Shown: positions 31,716-58,177, numbered from the stretch's first letter. The stretch: 64,000 bases of DNA from Candidatus Omnitrophota bacterium (GCA_041674705.1 JBAYVF010000004.1:38516-102515), one strand, 5' to 3'. Notes: a model not told the origin generated them from the sequence alone. Made by a program: numbers and translations.

Positions 31716-34117
31716 AGCGTTTCAGTGTTTTGTTTTTGAGCTTGTCCTTCTGCGCGTTCCTTTCGTCGGCGGTTTTTGCCGAAGATGCCGCGAAGAAGAC
31801 GGCGACTGAACCCGCGGTGGCTTCTCCGGCGGCTCCCGTTTCAACCCCTCAAGCTCAGACTTCGACTTCCACTTCGCCCGCAACAGATTCCCAGCCCGCT
31901 CCGAGGATTGAAAAAACGGTCGTCGCCGTGGATGTTCGCGGGAATCGCATCGTGAGCACGAACACGATCTTGAGTAAGATCCAGACCAAGGAAGGGCTTG
32001 CCCTTAAACAGCAAACCGTCAACGAAGATATCAAGCGCCTTTATGCGACCGGATTTTTTGAGGATGTGAAACTGGAAGTGGAAGAACTTCCGGAAGGTTA
32101 CAAGCTGATCGTGGACGTCGACGAGAAGCCGATCATCAAGCAAATTACGCTCGAGGGGTTTACTTCTTTTAAAGAGGATAAGCTTCGCAAGACATTGGGC
32201 GTGATGGAAGGACAGATCCTGGATCGCAAGGCCGTCAAAAAAGGCGAGGAAGAGATCCGGAAGCTTTACGCGGACAAGGGATTCCGGTTCGTGGACCTTC
32301 AAACGGCGGTGAACGTGGACCCTCAAACCAAAGAAGCTGTGATCACGATCAAGGTCTTCGAAGGGAAAAAGTTCAAGATCACCAAGATCTCTTTCGAGGG
32401 GGCCAAAGCCTTCAAGCCCAAGCAGCTTGCCAAGCTCATGAAGACGAAGAAGCAAATATGGTTCCTGTTCGGCACGTTCAAAGAAGGTGACTTTGAAAAA
32501 GACCTCGAGAAGATCAGTTTCTTCTATCAAAAGGAAGGCTATCTGGACGTGAAGGTGTCTCCGGAGTTCAGTTATAACAAAGACAAGAATACGATCGAGA
32601 TCCTGATCAGGATCGACGAGGGGCAACATTATCTGACCGGTGAGATCAAGTTCAAGGGGAGTACCCTTTTCCCGGAGTCCGAGCTTTGGCAGCAACTCGA
32701 AATGCTTCCCGGCCTGACTTATTCGCAGTTCTATGTCGCGCAGGATATCGAAAAGCTCCGTCAGTTCTATGCCAACGAGGGTTATATCGAAGCTCGCGTG
32801 GTGCCTGACGTAAAATTGAACCGCGACAGCGGGAAAGTCGATATCACCTACGAGATCCAGGAAGGAGACCTTTATTTTGTGGAGAAGGTCCAGATCCGCG
32901 GAAACACCAAGACCCGCGACAAGGTCATCCGTCGCGAGCTTCGCATCCGCCCGGGCGAACGCTTTGACGGCAAGAAGATCGAAAAATCCAAGGAGCGCCT
33001 CCAGAACCTGAACTATTTTGAAGAGATCACCTATGATACCGAGCCTACGGATGCCGGGACAAATCGCAAAGACCTTATTTTCAGGGTGAAAGAAAAACGT
33101 ACGGGCGAGCTTTCCTTCGGCGGCGGCGTCAGTTCCATTGATACCTTCATGGGGTTTGCCGAGATCTCCCAACGCAATTTCGATATTCTCAACTGGCCGC
33201 GTTTCACGGGTGGTGGACAGTCGCTTTCGATCCGCGGGCAGATCGGTACGATCCACCAGGAATACGACGTCAGTTTCGTGGAACCGTACCTTTTTAACAA
33301 GCCGATCTCCTGGGGCACGAACCTTTTTGCCACTTCTCAAGACAACAAGAACACTCTTTTTGGCGAGAGACGCATGGGCGCTTCCACGACTTTATCGCGT
33401 CTTTTTAAAGATGTTCTCCGGGCGGGTGGCGGGTACACGCTGGAACGCGTGGAGCTCAGGGATATTGCGGACAATGCTCCCGTTTCGGTCACGGAATTTA
33501 AAGGGCCGGACTGGCTTTCCAGACTTCGTGCGTTCACGACCTTTGATAATCGAGATAGTGTCTTTGCCCCGACCAAAGGGCGCGTGATCAATCTCGCAGG
33601 CGAGCTGGTCGGAAGTTTTCTTGGCGGCGACCAGGAGTATTATATCCTGAGATCCGGATACACGGAGTACCTTACGTTCCATAAAAAGCATCAGATCGAA
33701 TTTCAGGCCAGGTTGGCTTCGGCTCAGTCGTTCGGGAAATCGTCCACAACGCCGGCCTATGACAGGTTCTTTGCCGGCGGCCTTGGTACGGTACGTGGTT
33801 TTGATTACCGGCGTGTGGGGCCTCAGGAAGAAGGGGAGGCCGTGGGCGGTCAGACCATGGCGATTGTGAATTTGGACTACACTTTTCCGCTTCCGTATCT
33901 TGACGCATTCCGCGGTGTGGTGTTTGTGGATGCGGGGAATGTTAGCAAGGATTCCTACAATATCGATTTCGGGAAATTTGCCGTAAGCGTGGGTCCCGGG
34001 ATCAAGGTCAAGACACCGATCGGGCCTTTGGCTTTTTATTATGGTCTTCCCATTGCAAACCGGGACACCAAGAACAGGAACGGTCGTTTTGAATTCAGTT
34101 TGAGCCGTAGTTTTTGA
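31712..34117 (+). CDS. bamA: Outer membrane protein assembly factor BamA
   Basis: Signal peptide, POTRA repeats, C-terminal 16-strand barrel ending ...FEFSLSRSF. Confidence 0.9.
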   Translation: MKRFSVLFLSLSFCAFLSSAVFAEDAAKKTATEPAVASPAAPVSTPQAQTSTSTSPATDSQPAPRIEKTVVAVDVRGNRIVSTNTILSKIQTKEGLALKQQTVNEDIKRLYATGFFEDVKLEVEELPEGYKLIVDVDEKPIIKQITLEGFTSFKEDKLRKTLGVMEGQILDRKAVKKGEEEIRKLYADKGFRFVDLQTAVNVDPQTKEAVITIKVFEGKKFKITKISFEGAKAFKPKQLAKLMKTKKQIWFLFGTFKEGDFEKDLEKISFFYQKEGYLDVKVSPEFSYNKDKNTIEILIRIDEGQHYLTGEIKFKGSTLFPESELWQQLEMLPGLTYSQFYVAQDIEKLRQFYANEGYIEARVVPDVKLNRDSGKVDITYEIQEGDLYFVEKVQIRGNTKTRDKVIRRELRIRPGERFDGKKIEKSKERLQNLNYFEEITYDTEPTDAGTNRKDLIFRVKEKRTGELSFGGGVSSIDTFMGFAEISQRNFDILNWPRFTGGGQSLSIRGQIGTIHQEYDVSFVEPYLFNKPISWGTNLFATSQDNKNTLFGERRMGASTTLSRLFKDVLRAGGGYTLERVELRDIADNAPVSVTEFKGPDWLSRLRAFTTFDNRDSVFAPTKGRVINLAGELVGSFLGGDQEYYILRSGYTEYLTFHKKHQIEFQARLASAQSFGKSSTTPAYDRFFAGGLGTVRGFDYRRVGPQEEGEAVGGQTMAIVNLDYTFPLPYLDAFRGVVFVDAGNVSKDSYNIDFGKFAVSVGPGIKVKTPIGPLAFYYGLPIANRDTKNRNGRFEFSLSRSF

Positions 34118-34240
34118 TCGGGCGCTTGTTTCGCCCGATCATCCTGAGCGACTGAACGTATTTTGTGAGGGAGTCGAAGGATTCCCTTTGAGGTGAAGTA
34201 GGATTTTAATTCCATTCTAATCTAAAAAAGGAGAGATACC

Positions 34241-34753
34241 ATGAACCGTAAAATGATAGCAGGTTTTCTGGCGGCGTTGATGATGTTGGGCCTGAGCTTT
34301 CCGGCTTTCGCGGCGGAGATGAAGGTTGCCTATGTCGATGTGGGCGAGGTTTTTGACAATTACCAAAAGACCAAGGATCAGGATCTGGTGCTGAAGACCG
34401 CGGGAGAAGCCAAGGAAAAAGAACGTAATGAAATGGCGACCAAGATCCGCTCGATGGAAGATGAAATAGCCCTTCTCGCGGCGGATGCCCGCGCTGCCAA
34501 GCAGGAGCAATTGATCGAAAAGAAGCGTCAGCTTGAGGATTTTGATCGCAATGTGCGTCAGCAACTCGCAGAACAGCGCGATAAGGTGGTTCGCGAGATC
34601 TTCCAGGAGATCGATGTGATCGTTCAGGATCTTTCGGCCAAGGGCGGTTATGACATGATCTTCAATAAACGCGTGCTTCTTGCCCAGAAAAAGAATTTTG
34701 ACATTACGCCGCAAGTTTCTGCGGAGCTCGCGAAGAAATACAAAAAGGCTTAA
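34241..34753 (+). CDS. skp: OmpH/Skp periplasmic chaperone
   Basis: Signal peptide plus coiled-coil OmpH fold. Lies downstream of bamA. Confidence 0.8.
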   Translation: MNRKMIAGFLAALMMLGLSFPAFAAEMKVAYVDVGEVFDNYQKTKDQDLVLKTAGEAKEKERNEMATKIRSMEDEIALLAADARAAKQEQLIEKKRQLEDFDRNVRQQLAEQRDKVVREIFQEIDVIVQDLSAKGGYDMIFNKRVLLAQKKNFDITPQVSAELAKKYKKA

Positions 34754-34766
34754 AGCTTTAGGGATC

Positions 34767-36047
34767 ATGAAACAAAAGACGCTCAAAACCCAAGCTGTTT
34801 TCGAAGGGACGGGGCTCCATACCGGTCACAAGGTGACGGTATGCGTGCGTCCGGCTTCGGAGAATGCGGGCATTCTCTTTTGCCGTGTCGATCTGGCCCC
34901 GGACCTCAAGGTCCGGGCCTCGATCGAGAATGTCTGTTCCGACGAAGCTCGCCAGACCGCCATTGTGGTAGGCAGCGGTCGTGTCCGTACGATCGAGCAT
35001 CTCATGGCGGCTTTCCACGGGCTCGGGATCGATAACGCCTTAGTCGAGATCGACGGGGAAGAAGTGCCCGGGATGGACGGGAGCGCTCTGGAGTTTACGA
35101 AGGCCCTCATTGCCTCCGGTTTCGAGGAGCAGAACGCTCCGCGAAAGTTTCTTGAGATCAAAGAACCGGTGTATGTCGATCAAGGGGACCAGTCGATCGT
35201 GCTTTTGCCGGCCCCGACATTTTCGATCTCCTATATGTTGAGCTATCGCGATGCGAACCTTTTGGACCAGTACCTGTCGCTTCCGATCGTGCCGGAGATC
35301 TTTGAACGAGAGCTGGCGTCGGCTCGCACCTTTTGTCTTAAAAAAGAAGCCGAGCTCTTGCTGTCCCAGGGATTTGGCAAAGGGGCGAATCCTACCAACA
35401 CGCTTATTTTTGAAAAGAACAAACCCCTCCAGAACACTTTAAGGTTTGAAAACGAAGCGTGTCGCCATAAAATGATGGATATCCTGGGCGATCTGTTTTT
35501 ATGCGGAAAATTCATCCGCGGGCATGTGATCGCTTCCCGAAGTGGCCATGCCCTAAACGTCGAACTCGTGAGGAAACTGATGATGAACACTCCCGCTGAA
35601 CCCAAACCGCTCTCCAGGACGCTCAATGTGGAAGAGATCCAAAAGATCATCCCGCACCGCTACCCCTTTCTTTTTGTGGACCGGATCGAGAATTTTGAAC
35701 CGGGAACGCGTGCCACAGGTTTCAAACAGGTCACGATGAACGACTATTTTTTTCAGGGGCATTTCCCGGGTCATCCCGTGATGCCGGGGGTGTTGATCGT
35801 GGAAGCCATGGCGCAAGTCGGTGGCGTGATCATGCTGGGAGAGCCCGAGAATCGGGGCAAGATCGCCTACTTCATGAGCGTGGATGCCGTCAAGTGGCGC
35901 ACCCCGGTCCTTCCGGGAGATACGCTCCGGATGGAGGTCGAGGTTTTGAAGAAACGCGCCAAGTTTGGTCAATGTTCCGGCAAGGCTTATGTGGGTGATA
36001 AACTTGCATGCGAAGCGGATGTGAAATTCGCTGTGGTGGATGCGTGA
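34767..36047 (+). CDS. lpxC/fabZ: Bifunctional UDP-3-O-acyl-GlcNAc deacetylase / 3-hydroxyacyl-ACP dehydratase (LpxC-FabZ fusion)
   Basis: N-terminal LpxC (TLKTQAVFEGTGLHTG...HALNVEL). C-terminal FabZ hotdog (FQGHFPGHPVMPGVLIVEAMAQ). Start moved to MKQKTLK. Confidence 0.85.
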   Translation: MKQKTLKTQAVFEGTGLHTGHKVTVCVRPASENAGILFCRVDLAPDLKVRASIENVCSDEARQTAIVVGSGRVRTIEHLMAAFHGLGIDNALVEIDGEEVPGMDGSALEFTKALIASGFEEQNAPRKFLEIKEPVYVDQGDQSIVLLPAPTFSISYMLSYRDANLLDQYLSLPIVPEIFERELASARTFCLKKEAELLLSQGFGKGANPTNTLIFEKNKPLQNTLRFENEACRHKMMDILGDLFLCGKFIRGHVIASRSGHALNVELVRKLMMNTPAEPKPLSRTLNVEEIQKIIPHRYPFLFVDRIENFEPGTRATGFKQVTMNDYFFQGHFPGHPVMPGVLIVEAMAQVGGVIMLGEPENRGKIAYFMSVDAVKWRTPVLPGDTLRMEVEVLKKRAKFGQCSGKAYVGDKLACEADVKFAVVDA

Positions 36048-36814
36048 AGATTCATCCGACGGCGATCGTTCATCCGGACGCCATTTTGGGCGACGGGGTG
36101 GAGATCGGCCCTTGGGCGATCATTGCCGGGACGGTGAAGATCGGCGCGCGCACGAAGGTCGGGCCGCGCGTGACAATTGAAGGACACACCACGATCGGTG
36201 AAGATAATGAGATTTTTACCGGCGCGGTTGTTGGCAGCCTGACGCAGGACAAAAAAGCCGATGGTGGCGTGAGTTATCTGAAGATCGGCGACCGCAACAC
36301 GATCCGCGAATATGCGACCCTGAACCCCGGTACTTTAAATGGCACCGAAACCGTGGTCGGAAATGATAATCTTCTGATGGCCTACGCGCACGTGGCGCAT
36401 GATTGTATTATCCAAAATGGCGTAACCCTTGCCAATAACGCGACACTTGCGGGCCATGTGATCGTGGAGGATCAAGCGATCATCGGGGGGCTTTCCGCGG
36501 TCCATCAATTCGTCCGGATCGGAAAATTGTCGATCACGGGGGGATGCTCCAAAGTCGTGCAGGACATTCCTCCCTTTATGATGGTCGACGGCCATCCGGC
36601 ACATGCCTTTGGCATCAATGCCGTGGGGCTCGATCGCGCGGGATTTTCCAAGGAAGAAAAATCCGCCATCAAAAAGGCCTTCAAGATCATCTTCAAATCG
36701 GGCCTTATCTTAAAGAACGTTATCAAACAGATCCAGCAAGACATCCCCCTGAGTCCTTCCATTCAGACGATCCTCGCATTCCTGGAGACGTCCGAACGTG
36801 GCATTTGCGGATAA
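36044..36814 (+). CDS. lpxA: Acyl-ACP--UDP-N-acetylglucosamine O-acyltransferase
   Basis: GTG start overlapping the fabZ stop (GTGA). Hexapeptide repeats. (V)KIHPTAIVHPDAILGDGVEIGP. Confidence 0.85.
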   Translation: MKIHPTAIVHPDAILGDGVEIGPWAIIAGTVKIGARTKVGPRVTIEGHTTIGEDNEIFTGAVVGSLTQDKKADGGVSYLKIGDRNTIREYATLNPGTLNGTETVVGNDNLLMAYAHVAHDCIIQNGVTLANNATLAGHVIVEDQAIIGGLSAVHQFVRIGKLSITGGCSKVVQDIPPFMMVDGHPAHAFGINAVGLDRAGFSKEEKSAIKKAFKIIFKSGLILKNVIKQIQQDIPLSPSIQTILAFLETSERGICG

Positions 36815-36917
36815 GGTCCGCTTGAAGTCGGTATTTCGGGCCGTTCCCCCAGTGGTCGAATTCGCAGGGGATGAAGCCGATATCTCTTTCTGATATAATC
36901 TCTGGCGAGGTGAACTT

Positions 36918-37733
36918 ATGAAGACCATGGGCATTATCGCGGGCAACGGTCGTTTTCCCATTCTGGTGGCGGAAGAAGCCAAGCGGGCGGGATACCGGGT
37001 CGTGACCTGCGCCATTGAACAGGAAGCCGAACCGGCTCTGGAAAAACTTTCGGACGCTTTCTCGTGGGTCAAAGTGGGCGAGCTTAAAAAGCTGTCGAAA
37101 TTCCTCAAAGACGAAGGTGCTCACGAAGCCATCATGGCCGGCAAGATCGAGAAAGTGCGTTTCTTTAAGGAAAACGTCCGGTTCGATCTCGATATGATGG
37201 GAGTTCTTGTAAAGCTGAAGGACCACAAAGATGACTCCCTCCTCGGGGGTATTGCGGATTACCTCTTTAAAAAAGGCATCGTGCTCCAGGATTCAACCCT
37301 CCTTCTCAAAGATATGATGCCGGGCCCCGGCTTGCTTGGGAAAAGGAAACCCTCGAAAGCCGTTATGGACAATATTGATTTTGGCTTTGAAATGGCGCAA
37401 AAGATCTCGGGCGCGGACATCGGACAAACCGTGGTCGTGAAGAACAAGGCCGTACTCGCGGTCGAGGCCATTGAAGGCACCGACGAAGCGATACGCCGCG
37501 GCGGGGCGCTCGGGCGCGGTAAGATCGTTGTGGTGAAGATCGCCAAGCCAAATCAGGATATGCGTTTTGATGTGCCGGCGGTGGGCTTAAAGACCCTGGA
37601 GGGGTTGATCGAAGCGCAGGCTGTGGCTTTCGCATTTGAGGCCCATAAGACTCTTTTTATCGGCAAAGATATTTTTGTGGAGCAAGCCAATCGCGCGGGC
37701 ATCGTTCTTTACGGCGTGAGCGACCGGCCTTAA
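36918..37733 (+). CDS. lpxI: UDP-2,3-diacylglucosamine diphosphatase LpxI (DUF1009 family)
   Basis: About 270 aa with an N-terminus of LpxI/DUF1009 type (IAGNGRFP). Lies downstream of lpxA. Confidence 0.65.
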
Positions 37734-37746
37734 TGCTGGGGAAAAT

Positions 37747-39333
37747 ATGAGCAGTGAAAAAATAAAACCTACCGTAGGTTTGAAGCGTGAGATCCAGGAG
37801 CTCAGTGTGCTCTATGAGATCACCCGGCATATGACGGCCCCATTCCCGATCGAGGAGCGGATGAGGAAAGCGCTGGATGTGCTCCATGAAAAAATGGGCA
37901 TGCACCGCGGAACCTTGACGCTTCTGGATGCGGATGGTGAGAGCCTGACGATCGAGATCGCCCATGGCCTGGACGATCAGGCGAAAAAGAAAGGGCGCTA
38001 CAAGATCGGCGAAGGTATTACCGGAAAAGTCGTGGAGGCGGGAGAGCCGATCGCGGTGCCGAATATTGGGGAAGAACCGCTTTTTCTTAACCGCACCGGA
38101 GCCCGGAAAGATTTCCGGCGCAACCGGATCGCTTTCATCTGTGTCCCTATCAAGATCGACCAAGAGACCATTGGCGCGCTCAGCGTGGACCGCCTTTTCG
38201 AAGGCAATATTTCTCTGGACGAAGATCTAAGGCTTCTGACCATTATCAGCTCCATCCTTGCGCAAACCGTTGCCAGTTACCGACTTCGCGAAAAGGAAAA
38301 AGCGAAGCTCCAGTTCGAGAATGTCGAATTGAAGCGCGAACTTGCCAAGAAATTCCATCCAGCTAACATCATCGGGAAAAGCAAGCGCATGGAAGAAGTT
38401 TATGAGGCCATCGATATGGTGAGCCGGACGCGCTCGACCGTGCTGCTCCGGGGTGAAACAGGGACCGGAAAAGAATTGGTGGCGCATGCGATCCATTATG
38501 GAAGTTTCCGCTCGAAAGGGCCGTTCGTGAAGGTGTCCTGCGCGGCATTACCGGAAACTCTCCTCGAGAGCGAGCTCTTTGGGTATGAAAAGGGCGCTTT
38601 TACCGGGGCGGTCGCAAGAAAACTGGGGCGTTTTGAGCTGGCCGACGGCGGGACTCTTTTCCTCGATGAGATCGGGGATATCTCAGCCTCAATGCAGGTT
38701 AAGCTTTTGCGGGCACTCCAGGAGCGGGAGTTCGAGCGCGTGGGCGGGACCCAGACGATTCGCGTGGATGTGCGGGTTATCGCGGCGACGAACCGTGATC
38801 TTGAAAAAGCGATCCAGGAAAAGCAGTTCCGGGAAGATCTCTATTACCGGCTCAATGTAGTGCCGATCCTTTTGCCCTCTTTAAGGGAAAGGCGGGAAGA
38901 TATTCCGCTTCTTGTCGCGCATTTCTTGAAAAGGGCAGATCTTGAAAACGGGAAAAAAGTGAAGTATGTTTCCGACGATGCCATGAAGTATTTGATGGGT
39001 TATTCTTGGCCCGGCAATATCCGGGAGCTTGAGAACGCGATCGAACGGGCTGTGATCCATTGCAAGACCGATACGCTTGAAACCGATCTTTTTCCGATAC
39101 CGGGATCCAAAGGCCATCCGGTTATGATCCAGCCCAAGCCTTTTGAATCCTCGATCGGGGAAAAGGGTGAAGATGTTCCAGGGGATCTTCCGAGCGCTGT
39201 TGAAAAGCTTGAAAAGAAGTTGATCCAGGAGGCTCTTCGCTCCAATGCCGGGAATCAGCGCAAGACGGCCAAGGCGCTTGGAGTGACGGAGCGTATCCTT
39301 GGGTACAAGATCAAACAGTATGGTCTGAAGTAG
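37747..39333 (+). CDS. Sigma54-dependent transcriptional activator with N-terminal GAF domain and C-terminal Fis-type HTH (NifA/NtrC-like, no receiver domain)
   Basis: AAA+ sigma54-interaction domain ([29 protein letters not shown]-equivalent). C-terminal [22 protein letters not shown]. Confidence 0.85.
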
Positions 39334-39340
39334 CGGGTTC

Positions 39341-39383
39341 CTACAAAATTGTAGTTATTTCCCCCAAGACAACAATTTTGTGG
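39341..39383. promoter_or_regulatory. Two inverted copies of the motif CYACAAAATTGTWG (CTACAAAATTGTAG and CAACAATTTTGTGG), a putative upstream activator site for glnN
   Basis: Located at 39341-39354 and 39370-39383, 50-95 bp upstream of the sigma54 -24 element. Confidence 0.45.
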
Positions 39384-39433
39384 TTTTATATCTCAGATGG
39401 AGTGAATCCCTAGGGGTGAAATAGCTAAGAAAT

Positions 39434-39449
39434 TGGCATAGAAATTGCT
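39434..39449 (+). promoter_or_regulatory. Sigma54 promoter (TGGCAT-N5-TTGCT) for glutamine synthetase
   Basis: GG-N10-GC spacing is exact. Lies 80 nt upstream of the ATG. Confidence 0.6.
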
Positions 39450-39528
39450 AATTAGGAATGGGGTTCTTTTACGTCTTCATGAAAAGAAGCTGAATTAACA
39501 AGCTATTCAAACAAAAAAGGGGGATGTT

Positions 39529-41670
39529 ATGTGCGAAGATAAGGCCTGTCAGTGCAGTTCTAAAAATGTGGATGTGCCGAAGATTTTTGGAAGTAACGTT
39601 TTTAATGATCGGACCATGAGAGAACGTCTCCCCAAAGAGACCTATAAAGCTCTCAAGAAAACGATCCAGCAAGGACTTCCGCTTTCGCCCGAGGTGGCCA
39701 ATGTGGTTGCCAATGCGATGAAGGATTGGGCTATTGAAAAAGGTGCGACGCATTACACCCATTGGTTTCAGCCGCTCACTGGCCGTACCGCGGAAAAACA
39801 TGATTCTTTTATCTCTCCGACCGACGATGGTAGCGTGATCATGGAGTTCTCCGGGAAGCAATTGGCTCAAGGTGAACCAGATGCATCGTCTTTTCCGAGC
39901 GGGGGTCTTCGCTCCACATTTGAAGCGCGTGGCTATACGGCGTGGGATTGCACCTCTCCCGCATTCCTCAAAGAGGATGCTTCGGGGAATGTGACTCTTG
40001 CCATTCCGACGGCTTTTTGTTCTTATACGAGCGAAGCGCTTGATAAAAAAACGCCGCTTCTTCGTTCCATGGAAGCAGTTTCCAAACAGGCCATTCGCGT
40101 TTTAAAAGCCCTCGGCAACAAAACCGCAAAGCGCGTGACCTCGACGGTCGGTCCTGAGCAGGAATATTTCCTGATCGACAAGACCTGCTATGAAAAACGT
40201 CTCGATCTGATCGTTTCCGGGAGGACGCTTTTCGGCGCCCCTTCGCCCAAGGGACAGGAGTTGGAAGATCAGTATTTTGGCGCGATCAAAGATCGTATTG
40301 CCGATTTCATGAGGGATCTGGATATCGAACTTTGGAAGATGGGGATCTCTTCCAAGACCAAGCACAACGAAGTGGCGCCCGCGCAGTATGAAATGGCGCC
40401 GATCTATTCCACGACCAACATCGCGGCGGATCACAATCAACTTGTGATGGAAACCATGCAGAAAGTGGCGCTTCGCCACGGCCTTGTGTGCCTCCTTCAT
40501 GAGAAGCCGTTTGCGGGCGTGAATGGTTCTGGCAAGCATAACAACTGGTCGCTTTCGACCGACGATGGACAAAATCTTCTTGAGCCGGGGAAGACGCCTT
40601 CTGAGAACGAGCAGTTCTTGATCTTTGTAAGCGCCCTTCTCATGGCAGTGGATCGTCATGCTGACAAGCTTCGCGCGAGTTGCGGCAATCCCGGGAATGA
40701 TCTACGGCTCGGCGCGAACGAAGCTCCTCCTGCCATTATTTCGGTTTTTATGGGGGAAGAGTTCACGGAGATTTTGGAAGGTATCGCTAAGGGGAAAAAA
40801 GTGGAGTCCCGTGGCCAGAGTTTTCTTCATATCGGGGTCGATGCCTTACCTCCGCTCCCGAAGGACAATACCGATCGTAACCGCACATCGCCTTTCGCGT
40901 TCACGGGGAACAAGTTCGAATTCCGCATGGTTGGCTCCTCGGCCTCCATTTCGGGACCGAATATCGTGATCAATACTATTGTTGCGGAAGCGTTGGATGA
41001 GATTGCGACGCGTCTTGAAAAGGCCGGCAAGAACGGTCTGAACAAAGAAGCAACCGCAATCGTTCGCGACGCAGTGAAAAAGCATGGGCGTATCATTTTT
41101 AACGGGAACAACTACTCCGATGAGTGGGTTGCAGAAGCCAAGAAGCGCGGTCTGCCGAACATCAAGACCGGCATCGAAGCTCTGGGCTACATGGCGACGC
41201 CTCAGGCAGAGAAGCTCTTCGACAAGTACCAGGTGCTTTCTCCCAAGGAGCTCCATTCCCGTTATGAGATCTACTTGGAAGCCTATGTAAAGCATGTGAA
41301 TATCGAAGCTCAGGCATCCGTCCAGATGGTCAAGCGGCTCTTTATGCCTGCAGGGATAAAGTTTGCCGCCGAGCTCGCAGGGGGGATCGGAGCTTTAAAA
41401 TCAGCTGCGGCTTCGGTGACGGTCCAGAAAGCATTGCTCACAACTGTGAGCGGCCTTTTATCAACCGCTTCGGAAAAGCTTGCGGTACTTGAAGCTTCAA
41501 TCGATAAGGCGCACCATGTATCGGATGTGGCCAAACGTGCCGAGGCATTCCGAGACAAAGTCGTTGTGGTGATGAATGCTCTTCGCAAGGACATCGATGC
41601 GCTTGAAGGCGTGACTCCGACTGAAATTTGGCCGGTTCCCACTTACGCGGAGATGCTCTTCAAGTTGTAA
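39529..41670 (+). CDS. glnN: Glutamine synthetase type III
   Basis: 713 aa, the size typical of GSIII. The catalytic region shows the Gln-synt_C hallmark residues of a type III GS. Confidence 0.8.
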
Positions 41671-41848
41671 GGCGCGATTTTAAGCGCACTTATCTGGTTC
41701 GACATAGCTTACCACCTTGAGTGAAGTCGAAGGGCTGAGCAAGCCCGAAGGGCGCGCCGAAGGATATCCTTCGACTCCTTCGCAAAAGGCTCACTCGCTC
41801 AGGATGATTAGGGTTGGTGTTACCAACCCTAAACAATCAGGGCAAGGC

Positions 41849-41888
41849 AGGCGGGTTTCCTCATCCCCTGAGGGACCCGCCTTTTTTT
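41849..41888 (+). terminator. Rho-independent terminator of glnN
   Basis: AGGCGGGT...ACCCGCC stem followed by TTTTTTT. It is preceded by three further hairpins (41745-41795, and TAGGGTTGGT-gtt-ACCAACCCTA at about 41805-41828). Confidence 0.6.
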
Positions 41889-41962
41889 ATTGAGACTGTC
41901 CTGATGTTCTCGCAATAAATTCCCGCAAAAATACACACATCTTTCGGCCCATTCACTCGATT

Positions 41963-41978
41963 TGGCATGGCTCTTGCA
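41963..41978 (+). promoter_or_regulatory. Sigma54 promoter (TGGCAT-N5-TTGCA) for amt1-glnK1
   Basis: Exact -24/-12 consensus and spacing. Confidence 0.6.
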
Positions 41979-42080
41979 CCTATATGATGGCTCTAGAGTA
42001 CGAGTGGTTTTTATAGGCATAAAAATACAAAAATGTGCGACAAATTCGTGGAGAATCAAACCTTTGAAAGGGAGGAGCAA

Positions 42081-43412
42081 ATGATGAAAAAACTAAAGAA
42101 GTGGTTTTTAGGAATAACCGGGTTTATGGCTCTCATGGGAATTTCAAGGCTGGCCATGGCGGCGGACGGGGTCGTTCCGGCCATTAATACGGGCGATACG
42201 GCGTGGGTGCTGATGTCTGCGGCGTTCGTTTTCCTGATGACCCCGGGCCTAGCATTCTTCTACGGCGGCCTAGTTCGCAAAAAGAACATGCTTTCGGTGC
42301 TCATGCAATGTTTTATGCTGATGTGCATCATCACGCTTCAATGGGTGATCTTTGGCTACAGCCTTTCGTTCGGGCCGGATATCAAAGGAATGATCGGAAG
42401 CTTGAGCTGGGCGGGCCTGCACGGCGTCGGGATAACGCCGTTCGCGGATTATTCAGCCACGGTTCCGCATCAAGCCTTCATGATCTATCAAGCGATGTTT
42501 GCCATTATCACGCCGGGACTGATCCTGGGCGCTTTCGCGGAGCGTATGAAATTTTCCGCATTTGTTGTCTTCTCGCTCCTCTGGGCGACCTTTGTTTATG
42601 ATCCCGTTTGCCACTGGGTGTGGGGCGTGGGCGGTTTCTTGAGAAACATGGGAGCGCTTGATTTTGCCGGAGGCACAGTCGTTCACATTAATGCGGGTGT
42701 TGCGGCTCTTGCCTGCGCGCTAGTGCTAGGGAAAAGAAAAGGTTATCCCAGCCATATGTCACCTCCGCACAATCTTCCGTTTGCTGTGCTCGGCGCGGGG
42801 TTGTTGTGGTTCGGCTGGTTCGGGTTCAATGGAGGAAGTGCCCTGGGAGCTAACGGTCTTGCCACAAGCGCCCTTGTGGTGACCCATGTGGCCGCCGCTG
42901 CCGCAGGTCTGACCTGGTCATTGATCGAATGGAAGATTAGCTCGAAGCCGACCATGCTTGGCATGATCACGGGAGCTGTTGCTGGGCTTGTTGCTATTAC
43001 GCCGGCCGCGGGATTTGTCGGCCCCATGGATGCTATTTGGATCGGGATTGGGGTTTCCGTGATTTGTTATTTCTTTGTTGCTGTGGTGAAAAGCAAGTTT
43101 GGCTATGACGATTCTCTGGATGCTTTTGGTGTGCATGGGGTTGGCGGGATCTGGGGAGCTTTGGCCACGGGACTCTGGGCCACAAAGGAGATTAATCCGG
43201 CCGGGAATAATGGGCTTTTTTACGGGAATCCTGGACTCCTGTGGATTCAGCTCAAGGCGGTAGTGATTACCATTGTTTATTCGTTCATCGTTTCGTTTGT
43301 TCTTCTGAAGATCGTAGACGTTCTGCTGGGTCTACGCGTTTCGGAGGACGAAGAGCGCATCGGGCTGGACCTCACGCAACATCGTGAATCTGGCTACACC
43401 ATCTTAGATTAA
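42081..43412 (+). CDS. amt: Ammonium transporter (copy 1)
   Basis: Amt/MEP signature D(F)AGG.VVH. Signal peptide. 11 TM helices. Start moved to the ATG after the GGGAGG Shine-Dalgarno. Confidence 0.9.
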   Translation: MMKKLKKWFLGITGFMALMGISRLAMAADGVVPAINTGDTAWVLMSAAFVFLMTPGLAFFYGGLVRKKNMLSVLMQCFMLMCIITLQWVIFGYSLSFGPDIKGMIGSLSWAGLHGVGITPFADYSATVPHQAFMIYQAMFAIITPGLILGAFAERMKFSAFVVFSLLWATFVYDPVCHWVWGVGGFLRNMGALDFAGGTVVHINAGVAALACALVLGKRKGYPSHMSPPHNLPFAVLGAGLLWFGWFGFNGGSALGANGLATSALVVTHVAAAAAGLTWSLIEWKISSKPTMLGMITGAVAGLVAITPAAGFVGPMDAIWIGIGVSVICYFFVAVVKSKFGYDDSLDAFGVHGVGGIWGALATGLWATKEINPAGNNGLFYGNPGLLWIQLKAVVITIVYSFIVSFVLLKIVDVLLGLRVSEDEERIGLDLTQHRESGYTILD

Positions 43413-43424
43413 AGGAGGAATGCC

Positions 43425-43766
43425 ATGAAATATATTATCGCCGTGATCCAACCGGACCGGGTGGATGAAGTGCTCCGGATCCTCGAAGAAAAAGAGATCC
43501 ATCTTGTGACCGTAACTAATGTTCTTGGCCGCGGCCGGCAAAAGGGGATCTCCGAGGTTTACCGGGGCCATAAAGAGGGGGGGCGGCTGCTTCGAAAAGT
43601 GAAGCTCGAAATCGCGGTCAATGAAGCCTTTGTGAAGGCGACGGTCGATGCGATCAAAGAAGGTTCGAGGACGGGGCATATCGGGGACGGCAAGATCTTT
43701 GTGCTCGATCTCAAGGAATGCTTTCGAATTCGCACCGGGGAGATCGGCGAAGTCGCAATCGGATAA
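43425..43766 (+). CDS. glnK: Nitrogen regulatory protein P-II (copy 1)
   Basis: MKYIIAVIQPDR...GRGRQKG...EVYRG T-loop. Linked to amt. Confidence 0.9.
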   Translation: MKYIIAVIQPDRVDEVLRILEEKEIHLVTVTNVLGRGRQKGISEVYRGHKEGGRLLRKVKLEIAVNEAFVKATVDAIKEGSRTGHIGDGKIFVLDLKECFRIRTGEIGEVAIG

Positions 43767-43767
43767 A

Positions 43768-43826
43768 ACGCGGGGAACGGCGAGCGAGAAATATTAGTTT
43801 TTGCGTTCGGCGTTCCCCGTTTCCAG
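43768..43826 (+). terminator. Imperfect long hairpin (CGGGGAACGGCG.../...CGTTCGGCGTTCCCCG) after glnK1: possible terminator or enhancer site
   Basis: About 17-bp stem with 2 mismatches and an AT-rich loop. A short T-run follows. Confidence 0.4.
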
Positions 43827-43840
43827 GTTTTTCAACAACT

Positions 43841-43856
43841 TGGCACATCTCTTGCA
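43841..43856 (+). promoter_or_regulatory. Sigma54 promoter (TGGCAC-N5-TTGCA) for amt2-glnK2
   Basis: Perfect consensus. Confidence 0.65.
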
Positions 43857-43984
43857 CCATACCGTGAGAAGCTCTATCTCTGCATTCGGCTCAGAATAGA
43901 GATTTTTTTGCTACCTTAAAGTCTACAAAAATGTAGGACGAATTCGTCGCGAATAGGATCTGTCGACAAAAATGGAGGCGTTTG

Positions 43985-45313
43985 ATGCGAAAAAAAAGTA
44001 AGCTTTTTTGGGAAATTATTCTTTTCTTTGTTTTTCTGGGTTTATCGAAAATGGTATGGGCTGCAGACCCAGCGGTCCCGCCCGTTAGCGGCGGAGATAT
44101 CTCGTGGGTTCTTGTTTCCGCGGCTCTGGTATTTCTGATGACTCCCGGTTTGGCTTTTTTCTACGGCGGGCTCGTTCGTAAGAAGAATATGCTCTCGGTC
44201 CTGATGCAGTGCTTTATTTTGATATGCCTGATCACGCTTCAGTGGGTGCTTTTCGGCTATAGTTTGGCATTTGGTCCGGATGTGAAGGGGCTGATCGGCA
44301 ACTTGAGCTGGGCAGGGCTTCAGGGCGTGGGTCTGGATCCTTTTGCGGCTTATTCATCTACAATCCCGCATCAGCTTTTTATGATCTATCAAGCGATGTT
44401 CGCGATTATCACGCCGGGCTTGATCCTGGGGGCCTTCGCAGAGCGCATGAAATTCTCCGCATTTTGTATCTTCTCGCTTCTTTGGGCCACATTCGTTTAC
44501 GATCCCGTTTGCCACTGGATGTGGGGTGCGGGTGGTTTCCTGAGAGATATGGGGGCTCTTGATTTTGCGGGTGGGGTTGTGGTTCATATCAACGCCGGCA
44601 TTGCGGCTTTGGTTTGCGCGCTTGTGCTCGGTAAAAGAAAAGGCTATCCCAGTCATATGTCGCCTCCCCACAACCTGCCCTTTGCGGTTTTAGGTGCCGG
44701 GCTTCTTTGGTTCGGTTGGTTTGGGTTTAATGGAGGAAGTGCGTTAGGCGCCAATCGACTCGCCGTGAGCGCCATGGTCGTTTCTCACGTTGCCGGGGCA
44801 GCTGCCGGGCTGACTTGGGCGCTCCTGGAATGGAAGTTCAACTCTAAACCTACCATGCTCGGTATGATTACCGGCGCCGTCGCGGGACTTGCGACGATCA
44901 CCCCGGCAGCAGGCTTTGTGGGGCCGATCGATGCGATCTGGATAGGGGTTTTGGCTTCACTCGTCTGTTTCTTTTGTGTGGCGGTGGTTAAAGCCAAGTT
45001 CACTTACGATGATTCACTGGATGCTTTCGGAGTGCACGGGGTTGGCGGGATCGTGGGGACTTTGGCCACGGGACTCTGGGCGACAAAGGCCATCAATCCA
45101 GCCGGGAATAACGGACTTTTTTACGGAAATCCGGGTCTGTTTCTAATTCAGCTGAAGGCTGTGGGGATCACCATTGTTTATTCATTTGTCGTCTCCTGGG
45201 TCCTTCTGAAGCTTGTGGATGTTTTTATAGGTCTGCGTGTTTCTGAGGACGGCGAACGCATCGGGCTGGATCTCACGCAGCATCGTGAATCTGCCTACAC
45301 CATGTTGGATTAA
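43985..45313 (+). CDS. amt: Ammonium transporter (copy 2)
   Basis: Paralogue of copy 1, about 75% identical. GGAGG Shine-Dalgarno before ATG 43985. Confidence 0.9.
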   Translation: MRKKSKLFWEIILFFVFLGLSKMVWAADPAVPPVSGGDISWVLVSAALVFLMTPGLAFFYGGLVRKKNMLSVLMQCFILICLITLQWVLFGYSLAFGPDVKGLIGNLSWAGLQGVGLDPFAAYSSTIPHQLFMIYQAMFAIITPGLILGAFAERMKFSAFCIFSLLWATFVYDPVCHWMWGAGGFLRDMGALDFAGGVVVHINAGIAALVCALVLGKRKGYPSHMSPPHNLPFAVLGAGLLWFGWFGFNGGSALGANRLAVSAMVVSHVAGAAAGLTWALLEWKFNSKPTMLGMITGAVAGLATITPAAGFVGPIDAIWIGVLASLVCFFCVAVVKAKFTYDDSLDAFGVHGVGGIVGTLATGLWATKAINPAGNNGLFYGNPGLFLIQLKAVGITIVYSFVVSWVLLKLVDVFIGLRVSEDGERIGLDLTQHRESAYTMLD

Positions 45314-45416
45314 CCCCGTTAGAGGTTCAGATGTCTCATAACGGACGTTCTAGAAAGTATGCGAATCAATACATCAAAAACACATCCCGTGAAAGTGGGT
45401 TAGATCTCTAACGGGG
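45314..45416 (+). promoter_or_regulatory. Second copy of the CCCCGTTAGAG...CTCTAACGGGG bracketed leader, between amt2 and glnK2
   Basis: Arms at 45314-45324 (starting right after the amt2 stop) and 45406-45416. The interior differs from the gatC copy. GGAGG Shine-Dalgarno and the glnK2 ATG follow. Confidence 0.5.
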
Positions 45417-45430
45417 TAAAGGAGGAACCT

Positions 45431-45772
45431 ATGCGCTACATCATTGCGATCATTCAACCAGATCGATTGGACGAAGTTTTGAGAATCTTGGAAGAAAAAG
45501 AGATTCATCTCGTGACGGTCACAAGCGTTCTGGGGCGCGGACGTCAAAAGGGGATTTCGGAAGTTTATCGCGGTCATAAGGAAAATGGACGTCTCTTGAA
45601 AAAAATAAAACTGGAGATCGCCGTGAATGAAGAGTTCGTGAAAGCTACCGTCGACGCCATTATCCAAGGTGCTCGAACTAATCACATCGGGGATGGAAAG
45701 ATCTTCGTTCTTGATCTAAAAGAATGTTTTCGTATCCGTACCGGTGAGACCGGGAAAATAGCGATCGGTTAA
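45431..45772 (+). CDS. glnK: Nitrogen regulatory protein P-II (copy 2)
   Basis: Near-identical to copy 1. Confidence 0.9.
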   Translation: MRYIIAIIQPDRLDEVLRILEEKEIHLVTVTSVLGRGRQKGISEVYRGHKENGRLLKKIKLEIAVNEEFVKATVDAIIQGARTNHIGDGKIFVLDLKECFRIRTGETGKIAIG

Positions 45773-45790
45773 ACCCAACTAAAAAGAGTA

Positions 45791-45854
45791 TCCCGGCCCA
45801 AAATCGCCTCCCCTGGCGATTGAGAAGTACCCCTTCTCGGGGCCGGGATTTTTC
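45791..45854 (+). terminator. Repeated 64-nt compound terminator element (copy 1)
   Basis: TCCCGGCCC...nested AATCGCC-tcccctg-GCGATT...GGGGCCGGGA followed by TTTTT. Near-identical to 47610-47674. Confidence 0.55.
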
Positions 45855-45976
45855 TTGCCCTGTTTTTTTGGATGTCGGGTGTTGGATCATTCCTAAAAAC
45901 TACAAAATTGTAATACCTCAAAATGTTTCTGCCTTCTCAAAATAAAATCCTACTGTAAGCCCGATTTTTCCTAACT

Positions 45977-45992
45977 TGGCATGATATATGCA
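45977..45992 (+). promoter_or_regulatory. Sigma54-type promoter (TGGCAT-N5-ATGCA) upstream of the Fis-like gene and porin; CTACAAAATTGTAA motif at 45900-45913
   Basis: GG-N10-GC spacing conserved. The motif lies about 65 bp upstream. Confidence 0.5.
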
Positions 45993-46035
45993 CTGTTTCC
46001 AATGGGTTCATTAACAGCCAATCGAAATTCAAGGT

Positions 46036-46242
46036 TTGAAGCAAATGGAGAATTTTAAACTGGATCATGGAGCTCTTCCAAATGAAGGGAGGCTTCTAAA
46101 TGCTGTTCATGAGCTTGAAAGGCAGATGATTGAGAAGGCCATGGCGCGCTCCGGGGGAAACCAACGCGTGGCCTCGGAAATCCTGGGGATCACGGAGCGT
46201 ATGCTGGGATATCGCTTAAAACATTACGGAATGAATTTTTAG
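46036..46242 (+). CDS. Stand-alone Fis-family HTH DNA-binding protein (68 aa)
   Basis: C-terminal NQRVASEILGITERMLGYRLKHYGM resembles the Fis/NtrC C-terminal HTH. Confidence 0.6.
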   Translation: MKQMENFKLDHGALPNEGRLLNAVHELERQMIEKAMARSGGNQRVASEILGITERMLGYRLKHYGMNF

Positions 46243-46274
46243 GAAGCATTTTAGAAATACAACAACTGGAGGAA

Positions 46275-47573
46275 GTGATGGAAAAAATATTAAAAAGGTT
46301 TTTAAGTGTGTGCCTGATCGGAATGTGTTTTTGCCCCGGGGTGGTTTTTGGCGAAAGCCTTGAGACCGCGCCCGGGGTCCAGGCAACCGAGATCGCTCCG
46401 GCGCCGGTAGCCTCTCCGGACCGAGGGCTCTTGATGAGCCTTCTGGATTGGGCGGGGATCGGACAGACCCTGGACAAAGCCGGCATCAAGATCTACGGCT
46501 ATTCCGAAGCCGGGATCATGTTCGATCCCACGGCGGGCCGGAACGGGGCGGGTCCGACTTTTCTGGGATTCAATTATTTCAAAAACACCCCGATGCTCAA
46601 CAAGATCAGTTTGAACGTTGAGCGCACGGTCGATCCGTCGAAGAAGGCGTTTGACGTGGGTTTCCGTCTCGAGGGCATCTGGGGAACGGACGCGAAGTTC
46701 ATCCACGCGAACGGTATCGCGGACACACAAACGGGTCGCTATCAGATGGATCCTTTGCAGGCCTATGTCGACGTCACGACGCCTTACCTTCCGATTCGGA
46801 TCCGCGCCGGAAAATGGATCGAACTGGCCGGCTTTGAACATTTCAGCGCCAATATCTACGGTGCGTTCGGTGATCCTGCCAGGGCGTTTTATTCTTACAG
46901 TTATCAGTTCCTCTACGCGGAGCCTGGGACCCAAACGGGTGTTTTGGGGACTTATGTCCTGAATCCGCAATGGTCTTTTGATCTTGGGATCACGGATGGC
47001 TGGAATCAATGTACCCGGGATGCCAACCATTACGCGGACATCCTGGGGCGTATTACGTTTACGCCCAATGATAAGACCGCGTTTATTTTCACAATGACCG
47101 AAGGCCCGGAGTATCCGACGGGGGTAGGGCGTGGATTGCCTCCCGGTGACAATAAAGACTGGTGGACGGCCATGGATTTCGTAGCCACCCGCAAGGTGAC
47201 CGAAAAATTGAGTTTGGGTTTGGGAGGCGATTTTGTGAATGCTCCGCACATTCCCGGATTGTCCAAAGGCGCCAAACAATGGGGAGGTGTGGCCGGGTAT
47301 GCCAGCTACGCTCTTAACAAGTTTGTCACGGCGAATTCGCGACTCGAGTGGTATATCGACGCGGCCAACGGGTTTTCGAACGGAGCGTCCACGCGCGCCA
47401 ATTACTATGAAGCGACCTTGGGCCCGGCTATCAAGCCCTTCGCGAACAAGAAGTTCTTGTCTCAGGTGATCGTGAGACCGGAACTTCGCTTTGATTTTTC
47501 AAATCAGCCGGTTTTTGCCAAAGGCGACAAGATGCAGGTGTCGTTAAGCGCGGATATTCTGTATACCTTTTAG
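46275..47573 (+). CDS. Outer-membrane beta-barrel porin (sigma54/nitrogen-regulon associated)
   Basis: Signal peptide (MMEKILKRFLSVCLIGMCFCPGVVFG). Alternating amphipathic beta strands. C-terminal ...ADILYTF with terminal aromatic residue. Confidence 0.65.
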   Translation: MMEKILKRFLSVCLIGMCFCPGVVFGESLETAPGVQATEIAPAPVASPDRGLLMSLLDWAGIGQTLDKAGIKIYGYSEAGIMFDPTAGRNGAGPTFLGFNYFKNTPMLNKISLNVERTVDPSKKAFDVGFRLEGIWGTDAKFIHANGIADTQTGRYQMDPLQAYVDVTTPYLPIRIRAGKWIELAGFEHFSANIYGAFGDPARAFYSYSYQFLYAEPGTQTGVLGTYVLNPQWSFDLGITDGWNQCTRDANHYADILGRITFTPNDKTAFIFTMTEGPEYPTGVGRGLPPGDNKDWWTAMDFVATRKVTEKLSLGLGGDFVNAPHIPGLSKGAKQWGGVAGYASYALNKFVTANSRLEWYIDAANGFSNGASTRANYYEATLGPAIKPFANKKFLSQVIVRPELRFDFSNQPVFAKGDKMQVSLSADILYTF

Positions 47574-47609
47574 GATCGCGGAAGCTCCATAAGAGATCAA
47601 GGAAAAATT

Positions 47610-47674
47610 CATCCCGGCCCAAGATCGCCTCCCCTGGTGATCGAGAAGTACCCCTTCTCAGGGCCGGGACTTTT
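47610..47674 (+). terminator. Repeated 64-nt compound terminator element (copy 2)
   Basis: TCCCGGCCCAAGATCGCCTCCCCTGGTGATCGAGAAGTACCCCTTCTCAGGGCCGGGA followed by TTTTTT. Confidence 0.55.
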
Positions 47675-56919: not shown

Positions 56920-57022
56920 AAAATTTTTAAATAACCAATAACCAAGAGACAAATCCCAAGCAAATTCAAAGAACCAATCTCCCAATCACGAATTTGGTTA
57001 TTGAGTTTTGGTTCTTGTTTGG

Positions 57023-58009: not shown

Positions 58010-58177
58010 GAGTTATCGAGAGGAAAACGATGTTCAGAAGCTTAAATCATAACCTTGAGCAGTGTCAACGGATATGTTACAGTGTGGCCTCAAACCGTAC
58101 AGCGTTTCGCGTACGGAGTACGGCGAAGGGTATTCCCTAATACGCCGTACGCCTTACTCCTTACTCGGAGATTTTTC

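Follow-up and report, generated by a model that had tools for sequence, protein, structure and literature searches.

Among the described regulators of sigma-54-dependent promoters, those closest to the one considered here are Nlh1 and Nlh2 of Aquifex aeolicus, which combine GAF, AAA+ and helix-turn-helix (HTH) domains without a receiver domain, in a non-diazotrophic host. Nlh1 is presumed to regulate nitrogen assimilation and not the nitrogenase (nif) genes, and its back-to-back GAF dimer keeps the AAA+ domains inactive until a ligand, unknown even for Nlh1, binds (review, PMC9866876). An activator of this architecture is encoded in a stretch of 64,000 nucleotides from a Candidatus Omnitrophota bacterium (GCA_041674705.1 JBAYVF010000004.1:38516-102515, hereafter the window, to which unprefixed positions refer), together with a type III glutamine synthetase (GSIII), two ammonium transporter/P-II pairs (amt-glnK), a small HTH protein and a porin, all between positions 37747 and 47674 and on the plus strand. 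It is likely that this nitrogen-assimilation island of the Omnitrophota is run as a sigma-54 regulon by its NifA-like activator, by means of a palindromic site, enhancers located in transcribed leaders and a feedback exerted by the small HTH protein. As such, it is a sigma-54 nitrogen regulon of known kind, NifA-like and closest to Aquifex Nlh1, and a fairly ordinary nitrogen-uptake cluster; what is new is the putative enhancer motif with its link to a recognition helix across phyla, the conserved leader sites, and a paralogue reduced to the DNA-binding domain, the functions of all three being predicted. No paper describing this regulon in Omnitrophota was found.

With the Aquifex proteins, the Omnitrophota activator also shares the succession of a GAF domain, a signalling helix and an AAA+ domain. 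It differs in its whole-protein identity, only about 38-46%, and in its recognition helix, which reads TERILGYK instead of the T(L/P)RQ(L/V)xYR of the Aquificae orthologues, so that a different DNA site is to be expected. Binding upstream of glnBA in Aquifex is said to have been found in 2000 by Studholme and colleagues; to our knowledge, neither a small paralogue made of the DNA-binding domain only nor a leader-located site has been described for Aquifex. The NifA proteins of diazotrophs (TIGR01817) show the same domain order, the same sigma-54 dependence and a GAF domain, which in NifA is the nitrogen-signal input, but here the predicted targets are glnN, amt-glnK and a porin gene instead of nif genes, the putative site is TACA-N4-TGTA rather than TGT-N10-ACA, and there is neither a NifL partner nor a redox cysteine motif. 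In the enterobacterial NtrB-NtrC regulon (glnAp2, glnK-amtB), glutamine synthetase (GS), Amt and P-II are likewise placed under -24/-12 promoters with palindromic, often paired, enhancers; a phosphorylated receiver is used there whereas a GAF sensor is found here, and the Omnitrophota genes differ by their order (amt, then glnK), by encoding GSIII rather than GSI, and by a P-II lacking Tyr51. Finally, the FlbD/ftr system of Caulobacter crescentus offers, as far as the titles of the relevant work tell, natural sigma-54 promoters with activator sites downstream of the start and an activator that can also repress; it is flagellar and needs IHF, whereas the 5' leaders considered here are short and their sites fixed at about +42 and +62.

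Sigma-54 promoters and transcription units

A first-pass annotation of the window, made from its sequence alone, had claimed four consensus -24/-12 promoters in this region. Exact matches to TGGCAY-N5-TTGCW are found at 39434, 41963 and 43841 (three versus 0.15 expected, with three or more in 0 of 100 shuffles), so that the strict consensus holds for three of the promoters; the fourth, at 45977, is off by one mismatch (TATGCA, not TTGCW), with GG-N10-GC retained, and its homologue in the related locus L164 reads TGGCACGGTATATGCA (compared loci are designated by L numbers throughout). In a weighted scan of both strands over the 64 kb, a check that the same annotation had proposed, the four promoters are among the five best matches. 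The fifth, at 57928, lies inside a minus-strand GFO-family oxidoreductase gene (PF01408; 57023-58009), upstream of msbA, and, not being conserved in the relatives L163 or L168, was treated as chance.

The four elements precede glnN (TGGCATAGAAATTGCT, 39434-39449, conserved in L166 and L172), amt1-glnK1 (TGGCATGGCTCTTGCA, 41963-41978), amt2-glnK2 (TGGCACATCTCTTGCA, 43841-43856) and the small HTH gene with the porin gene (TGGCATGATATATGCA, 45977-45992). All are intergenic and precede a gene of the same strand by 59-144 nt; every unit closes with a terminator-like hairpin and T-run. With a promoter in each intergenic region and a terminator after each unit, the region therefore reads as four terminator-bounded transcription units: glnN, amt1-glnK1, amt2-glnK2 and small HTH-porin. 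This architecture of promoters and sites is conserved in L166/167, L170/171, L172/163, L164 and L173, and the gene order, the four promoter classes and the palindromes described below recur in several Omnitrophota genomes, which bears out the earlier claim of a compact sigma-54 nitrogen regulon next to a GAF-type, NifA-like activator.

A NifA-like activator without receiver domain

The activator, an enhancer-binding protein (EBP), is encoded at 37747-39333 and identified by Pfam, NCBIfam and synteny. Its Pfam domains are GAF, Sigma54_activat (PF00158, 2e-74), AAA_lid_14 and HTH_8; the GAFTGA loop, at 38593, is intact and the sole one in the window. As had been annotated, there is no receiver domain (no Response_reg match), the N-terminus being the GAF domain. 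The best solved-structure match of this GAF domain is Aquifex Nlh1 (4G3K, E 1.9e-25, residues 18-189), and the nearest domains are, in order, those of A. aeolicus Nlh1 and Nlh2 (4G3K, 4G3V) and then those of NifA proteins. The qualification as NifA-like also agrees with the NCBIfam models, in that the nifA model (TIGR01817) is passed marginally (538.7 bits vs a cut-off of 528.85) and the ntrC model (TIGR01818) is missed by far (351.6 bits vs 558.6).

Such a pass might indicate a genuine nif-specific NifA, whose closeness to nitrogen-assimilation genes would then be incidental, and orthologues in metagenome-assembled genomes (MAGs) of Omnitrophota are indeed publicly named 'nif-specific transcriptional activator NifA' by NCBI, with NifA or VnfA in the records. 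However, the cut-off is exceeded by only 10 bits, and nif genes occur neither in the 64-kb window nor among the genes called in the related loci of Omnitrophota. Besides, the recognition helix is TERILGYK rather than the NifA-type TPRQxxYR, a CX4C redox motif is lacking in the protein, whose cysteines number only three, and the NifA-type enhancer TGT-N10-ACA, tried as a candidate site, was rejected, the stretch from -250 to +130 being free of it at all four promoters. A true NifA is thus extremely unlikely, and the name carried by the Omnitrophota orthologues is probably a functional mis-annotation. Orthologous activators adjoin amt, P-II or GS genes in L004, L005, L009, L040, L081, L085, L087, L088 and L093, and those of Acidobacteriota, Bacteroidales and others stand beside amt, glnK or GS genes with the same palindrome as in the window.

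Regarding the signal, the first-pass annotation had thought of direct sensing of 2-oxoglutarate. By analogy, this is plausible: Azotobacter vinelandii has a NifA whose GAF domain binds 2-oxoglutarate, according to a title cited in PMC9866876. An equally good alternative, also plausible by analogy, would be the docking of a P-II protein (GlnK) on the GAF domain, for which cited titles point to GlnB/GlnK precedents with NifA in Azospirillum and Herbaspirillum.

The activator gene itself starts 14 nt past the stop of lpxI, which it overlaps in L173. Since neither a palindrome nor a sigma-54 promoter is found upstream of it, we infer a probable co-transcription with the lpx genes, the activator gene forming the end of an lpxC/fabZ-lpxA-lpxI operon.

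The TACA-N4-TGTA palindrome and its likely binder

An inverted repeat upstream of glnN prompted a search for palindromes. The sequence TACAAAAWTGT occurs exactly once in each promoter region (4/4) and nowhere else in the window; with at most one mismatch allowed, TACA-N4-TGTA has six matches in the 64 kb, and the four with an all-A/T spacer are the promoter-region sites. Upstream of glnN, a distal palindrome (TACAAAATTGTA, 39342-39353), at the same position in L166 and L172, is centred at about -112, and a degenerate proximal one (AACAATTTTGTG, 39371-39382) follows 29-30 bp further at about -84; in the window, L166 and L172 together, these centres range from -112 to -114 and from -82 to -84. 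The small-HTH/porin unit has TACAAAATTGTA again (45901-45912), centred at about -96, at the same distance as in its L164 homologue and within a range of -88 to -118 in L163, L164, L166, L168 and L170. Pairs of palindromes 29-31 bp apart recur in L008, L010, L087, L088, L166 and L172.

In order to relate the motif to a protein, the 160 loci that a search with the activator had recovered were divided according to the recognition helix of their EBP, those ending in TER(I/M/V)x(G/N/H/S)(Y/L)(K/R) forming the TER class, and exact palindromes with A/T spacers were counted within 700 bp of the ends of the EBP gene. Their density is 0.359 per kb in the 21 TER-helix loci versus 0.027 in the 139 with another helix, with 0.003-0.022 per kb elsewhere. 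One palindrome or more is present in 8 of the 21 versus 4 of the 139. The carriers of the TER class include the Omnitrophota relative L081, many Acidobacteriota and a Bacteroidales MAG, and the palindromes, often paired at a spacing of about 30 bp, are placed between the gene of the EBP and those for Amt, P-II or GS. Because the type of helix co-varies with the motif and both are linked to nitrogen genes, the activator is most likely the binder of TACA-N4(A/T)-TGTA, which would make this 12-bp palindrome the likely enhancer of the regulon.

Sites within the amt leaders

While the sites of the two other units lie upstream of their promoters, those of the amt units are found in the transcribed leaders. 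In the amt1 leader, TACAAAAATGTG, centred at about +42, is followed 13 bp on by the degenerate palindrome GACAAATTCGTG (together 42026-42050); in the amt2 leader, TACAAAAATGTA, at about +62, is followed by GACGAATTCGTC (43924-43948). This second palindrome, GACrAATTyGT, is peculiar to the amt leaders, where it stands 13 bp after the first. Site centres are at +42 to +44 for the amt1 type (window, L166, L170, L172) and at +62 to +64 for the amt2 type (window, L170, L172), and in the aligned amt leaders the two palindromes are by far the longest fully conserved block. The gene callers start amt1 at 42033, an ATG within the TACAAAAATGTG palindrome and without a Shine-Dalgarno sequence; the start is probably 42081/42084, which follows the Shine-Dalgarno sequence GGGAGGAG and fits both the alignment with the paralogue and the orthologues of 442 aa.

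No other palindrome is present within -250 bp at amt1 or amt2. Moreover, only 75 bp separate the glnK1 stop from the -24 element of amt2, and a terminator occupies them, so that no room is left for an enhancer upstream of the amt2 promoter. Counted from the promoter centre (about -18), the amt1 and amt2 sites are about 60 and 80 bp downstream, while the nearest upstream sites of glnN (-84) and of the small HTH unit (-96) are about 66 and 78 bp away, and the distal glnN site (-112) about 94 bp. As the distances are nearly mirrored and no other site is close by, the leader palindromes are most likely downstream enhancers that would loop back to the promoter. Precedents exist in Caulobacter, namely the ftr2/ftr3 elements and a '3' enhancer' (Gober & Shapiro 1992, Mullin & Newton 1993, Benson et al. 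1994; known here from their titles, as cited in PMC3096577).

The same sites could also serve as operators, at which the small HTH protein or the non-activated dimeric activator, bound at +42/+62, would block promoter escape or elongation, so that Amt would be made only under severe nitrogen limitation, its activation starting from remote sites, for instance those of glnN. This role is the main rival since the Caulobacter activator also represses from some sites, FlbD both activating and repressing from ftr sites according to a title cited in PMC3096577. It would agree with the location of the sites in the transcribed region at positions conserved in four genomes, with the second degenerate palindrome 13 bp downstream that only the amt leaders have, and with the presence in the regulon of a non-activating DNA-binding protein bearing the same helix signature. 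On the other hand, amt1 and amt2 would be deprived of any nearby enhancer if the leader site were not one, the distances to the promoter centre mirror those of the upstream sites, and the amt genes of the distant relative L173 and of L081 have ordinary upstream sites. Operators are therefore held to be rather unlikely, and enhancers preferred.

A leader acting as RNA, either as a riboswitch or as a protein-binding leader whose likeness to the upstream palindromes would be coincidental, has also been considered. Nitrogen-related riboswitches are known upstream of amt and glnK in other phyla, and the block is both transcribed and the best conserved stretch of the leader. Nevertheless, there is no Rfam match at E<=1, the amt leaders fold no better than shuffled sequences (z -0.61 and +0.23), and the energy of the consensus structure is -0.6 kcal/mol, on which grounds this reading was rejected; the identical motif also stands in non-transcribed DNA upstream of the other units and in other phyla. 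An RNA function of the block is accordingly very unlikely.

The small HTH protein

The gene annotated at first as 'Fis-like' (46045-46242; 65 aa, or a 68-aa open reading frame (ORF) if started at 46036) has HTH_8 as its only Pfam domain and turns out not to be a Fis orthologue, its score with the NCBIfam Fis model being 27.1 bits versus a cut-off of 99. This label understates a gene that encodes an activator-type DNA-binding domain alone. Over the C-terminal 50 residues of the activator, the small protein has 46% identity and 78% positives, the DNA of the two being 70% identical over 54 nt (repeat D8), and its helix signature, ITERMLGYRLK, matches the TERxLGY signature of the activator. Among 152 EBP tails examined, this type of signature is found only in the GAF-type TER subfamily.

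The family comprises 73 clusters, in all of which the proteins are short (38-94 aa) and stand alone, with an HTH that hardly varies, and in pairwise comparisons synonymous codon changes exceed non-synonymous ones roughly 1.4- to 4-fold, which indicates purifying selection. The AlphaFold model (predicted local distance difference test, pLDDT, 83.7) has three helices, that is a long helix and a helix-turn-helix, after a disordered N-terminus. It matches helices B-D of Fis and the DNA-binding domains of NtrC1, NtrC4, ZraR, NtrX and 2M8G, the top Foldseek and phmmer matches being NtrC1 4L5E, NtrC4 3E7L/4FTH, 2M8G, ZraR 1OJL and Fis. The small protein thus shares with Fis and with the DNA-binding domains of sigma-54 activators a long, dimerisation-type helix followed by the helix-turn-helix, but differs from them in that it is free-standing, lacks in its model the N-terminal beta-hairpin arm of Fis, and bears the helix signature of its cognate activator.

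In every place examined, the small HTH gene is directly between a P-II gene and a BBP2 porin gene. In most relatives, it follows the P-II gene by 21-81 nt within a transporter-P-II-HTH-porin operon; the window has no third transporter with its P-II, the HTH-porin pair being there under the direct control of the homologous promoter. An exhaustive representative search further retrieved longer EBP-like proteins of 293-352 aa (P0077, P0085, P0090, P0094; loci at L174 6234-7118 and L175 2391-3275) with the same TER-type helix, GITERMLGYKLK, no GAF domain, a deleted GAFTGA loop and partly degenerate Walker motifs. P0077, the one whose context was examined, closes an amt-P-II-TPR-P0077 operon in another lineage, preceded by a TACATTTTTGTA palindrome and a -24/-12-like element with TTGT for TTGC. 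There are therefore at least two forms of non-activating copies of the DNA-binding module of the activator, and both are encoded at the far end of an amt-P-II operon. The same search gave many short HTH_8 proteins outside the family, several of which are C-terminal fragments of full activators, and no claim is based on them.

Because it shares the signature of the recognition helix and is a product of its own regulon, the small HTH protein most likely plays a negative-feedback role, and competition for the enhancer or poisoning of the DNA-binding dimer of the activator would be the most economical reading. We propose more tentatively, as a possibility rather than an expectation, that it forms with the longer GAF-less and GAFTGA-less paralogues a class of 'decoys' in sigma-54 regulons: non-activating proteins, made by the regulon, that would either rival the activator for TACA-N4-TGTA, especially at the amt leader sites, or poison its dimer, with a negative feedback possibly gated by the adjacent P-II. 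No description of such a class was found. A role as a P-II-linked adaptor is possible too.

Another view would make the small protein an architectural co-activator of the Fis/IHF kind, bending the DNA that separates enhancer and promoter and helping the short loops (60-110 bp) to form, which would amount to a positive feed-forward and not to a brake. Sigma-54 promoters often need a bending protein, the small HTH gene is co-regulated with the regulon, and Fis is among the best fold matches. Yet the DNA from the palindromes to the promoters contains no conserved element, the helix copies the signature of the activator and not that of Fis, membership in Fis fails and the beta-hairpin is missing, as said above, and the longer paralogues, without GAFTGA and with partly degenerate Walker motifs, resemble dead activators and not benders. 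Such a co-activator is quite improbable, and negative feedback is retained as the preferred role.

Nitrogen genes and the ends of their transcripts

All the genes that had been named in the island, from the activator to the porin, are as described according to Pfam. glnN (39529-41670) encodes a GSIII with the domains GSIII_N (2.5e-80), Gln-synt_C and Gln-synt_C-ter. The ammonium transporter gene amt1 (42081-43412, or from 42033 with the gene callers) is identified by Pfam Ammonium_transp and NCBIfam amt, and its paralogue amt2 (43985-45313; Pfam ORF 43982-45313) by Ammonium_transp and by the direct repeat D2. Directly downstream of each are glnK1 (43425-43766) and glnK2 (45431-45772), both coding for P-II proteins of 113 aa that score 84-88 bits with PF00543 (cut-off 25) and have GlnK and P-II proteins as best solved-structure matches. 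Both keep the ATP/2-oxoglutarate-binding residues Q39, K58, K90, R101 and R103 and have a Glu, not a Tyr, at position 51; in the absence of Tyr51, uridylylation of the GlnD type is not expected. The last gene (46275-47573) encodes, according to Pfam, a BBP2 (OmpL-like) outer-membrane porin and is always directly downstream of the small HTH gene.

After glnN, a terminator hairpin with a T-run is located at 41848-41888, the hairpin being partly conserved in L170. The 225 nt on the 3' side of glnN (41671-41895; -93.7 kcal/mol, z -5.05) have several palindromic hairpins before this terminator; considered as a small RNA from the 3' untranslated region, this segment was rejected, as it is missing in L172 and L166, partly shared with L170, and resembles an inserted palindromic repeat. 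The hairpin and T-run after glnK1 (43771-43835) correspond to the inverted repeat I9. The glnK2 and porin units are each followed by a copy of a 64-nt Y-shaped element, at 45790-45853 (direct repeat D5; -41.7 kcal/mol, z -6.5) and at 47611-47674 (-40.9 kcal/mol, z -5.4). The copies are 92% identical, with compensatory differences between them, and fold into a three-way structure followed by a U-run; the window holds no further copy, and the repeat is likely the terminator of both units.

Finally, the spacer between amt2 and glnK2 (45313-45420) is structured, with a long-range stem of 15 bp in which ACCCCGUUAGAG pairs with CUCUAACGGGGU around about 80 enclosed nt. Lying past the amt2 stop and ahead of the glnK2 Shine-Dalgarno sequence, it has counterparts at L172 17369-17495 and at L170 2786-2919 and 4800-4934; the consensus fold reaches -28.5 kcal/mol, with compensatory changes at two stem positions, and the single-sequence z is -3.96. 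It has no Rfam match, and the 12-nt amt1-glnK1 junction lacks the element, which may serve glnK in processing or in the control of translation.

Genomic setting in the Omnitrophota

Used as a query in genomes and metagenomes, the activator retrieved relatives of at most 59% identity only; what led to the close relatives in Omnitrophota was the small HTH protein, which is identical to one in a 'Candidatus Omnitrophota bacterium' MAG, together with the protein index, by which the gene contexts were also fetched. Orthologues of the activator with 63-92% identity are common in Omnitrophota MAGs, and a phylum-wide gene order emerges: rpsF-ssb-rpsR-rplI-dnaB-bamA-ompH-lpxC/fabZ-lpxA-lpxI-EBP, followed by GSIII, one or two amt-P-II pairs, the small HTH gene and the BBP2 porin gene, and then by carA-carB-(PPDK_N)-(gltB) and lastly lpxB-GFO-msbA. 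Across the Omnitrophota, the nitrogen island thus sits inside a lipid A/outer-membrane cluster, between lpxI and lpxB. In the window, the flanking envelope genes extend over 30351-37733 (dnaB-bamA-ompH-lpxC::fabZ-lpxA-lpxI) and 55780-59941 (lpxB-GFO-msbA), and L172 and L173 are arranged likewise. The pairing of a sigma-54 activator with envelope genes is curious, the activator gene abutting or overlapping lpxI.

Some Omnitrophota loci add, before the small HTH gene, a fusion of an amino-acid permease with P-II and a P-II gene. In L163 (7666-9555), L168 (7646-9535) and L170 (7713-9596), an APC-family amino-acid permease of 627-629 aa carries a C-terminal P-II domain and is followed by a separate P-II gene of 112 aa, the small HTH gene and the porin gene; the fusion unit is absent from the window. 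Directly after carAB, several Omnitrophota loci keep a gene that in the window (52253-54829) encodes a protein of 858 aa with PPDK_N (phosphoenolpyruvate (PEP)-utilising, ATP-binding) as sole domain, far under all PEP synthase cut-offs. Elsewhere in the window, an ORF with a HEPN AbiU2 domain, of abortive-infection type (15025-15591), occupies the gap between a gatA-like amidase gene (12888-14321) and gatB (16322-17773).

Proposed mechanism and significance

The following sequence of events can be envisaged. Encoded last in the lipid A operon (lpxC/fabZ-lpxA-lpxI-EBP), the activator would be constitutively present. Under nitrogen limitation, its GAF domain would release the AAA+ domain, by analogy with Aquifex Nlh1, the signal being possibly 2-oxoglutarate, another metabolite or a docked GlnK. 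The activator would then bind TACA-N4(A/T)-TGTA through its TERxLGYK recognition helix and remodel E-sigma54 at the four -24/-12 promoters, acting from the upstream sites at the glnN (-112/-84) and small-HTH (-96) units and, by looping back, from the transcribed-leader sites at amt1 and amt2. The small HTH protein would occupy the same palindromes or heterodimerise with the DNA-binding domain of the activator, and so damp or shape the activation. Once ammonium returns, GlnK1 and GlnK2 would presumably plug their Amt partners, while the porin would supply entry across the outer membrane.

Several points weigh against this scheme. No RpoN box is found in the 64-kb window, and a search for rpoN in all the fetched loci gave one match, in an unrelated Coriobacteriaceae locus, which is uninformative. 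The assignment of the palindrome to the activator is drawn from co-occurrence, and the half-sites, with the centres of TACA and TGTA 8 bp apart, stand close together for a dimer of the Fis type, unless the outer bases (CTACA...TGTAG) are contacts. Transcription starts, near 39460, 41989, 43867 and 46003, were predicted solely from the -12 position, and the site distances count from them. The identity of the small HTH protein to other EBP DNA-binding domains reaches 44%, versus 46% to its own activator; as these overall values barely differ, the claim of a paralogue draws mainly on the recognition helix. Besides, the leader sites could be operators, as discussed above. The first-pass annotation had also described the regulon as self-contained and experimentally tractable: it is compact, but not fully self-contained, rpoN being absent from the window and the activator gene having no sigma-54 promoter of its own, and the lineage is indeed uncultured, so that tractability has to be understood as heterologous reconstitution.

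For the Omnitrophota, a widespread uncultured phylum, these data provide a regulatory map of nitrogen assimilation, with an activator, a motif, four promoters and predicted starts. The probable mis-annotation of such activators as NifA could inflate inferences of diazotrophy from metagenomes, and the tie between the TERxLGYK helix and a DNA motif across several phyla makes regulon prediction possible in Acidobacteriota and other groups. If true, the leader enhancers would join those of Caulobacter as the second natural example of sigma-54 activation from downstream, and, should the decoy proposal hold, sigma-54 biology would gain a simple new feedback device in a protein made of the DNA-binding domain only.

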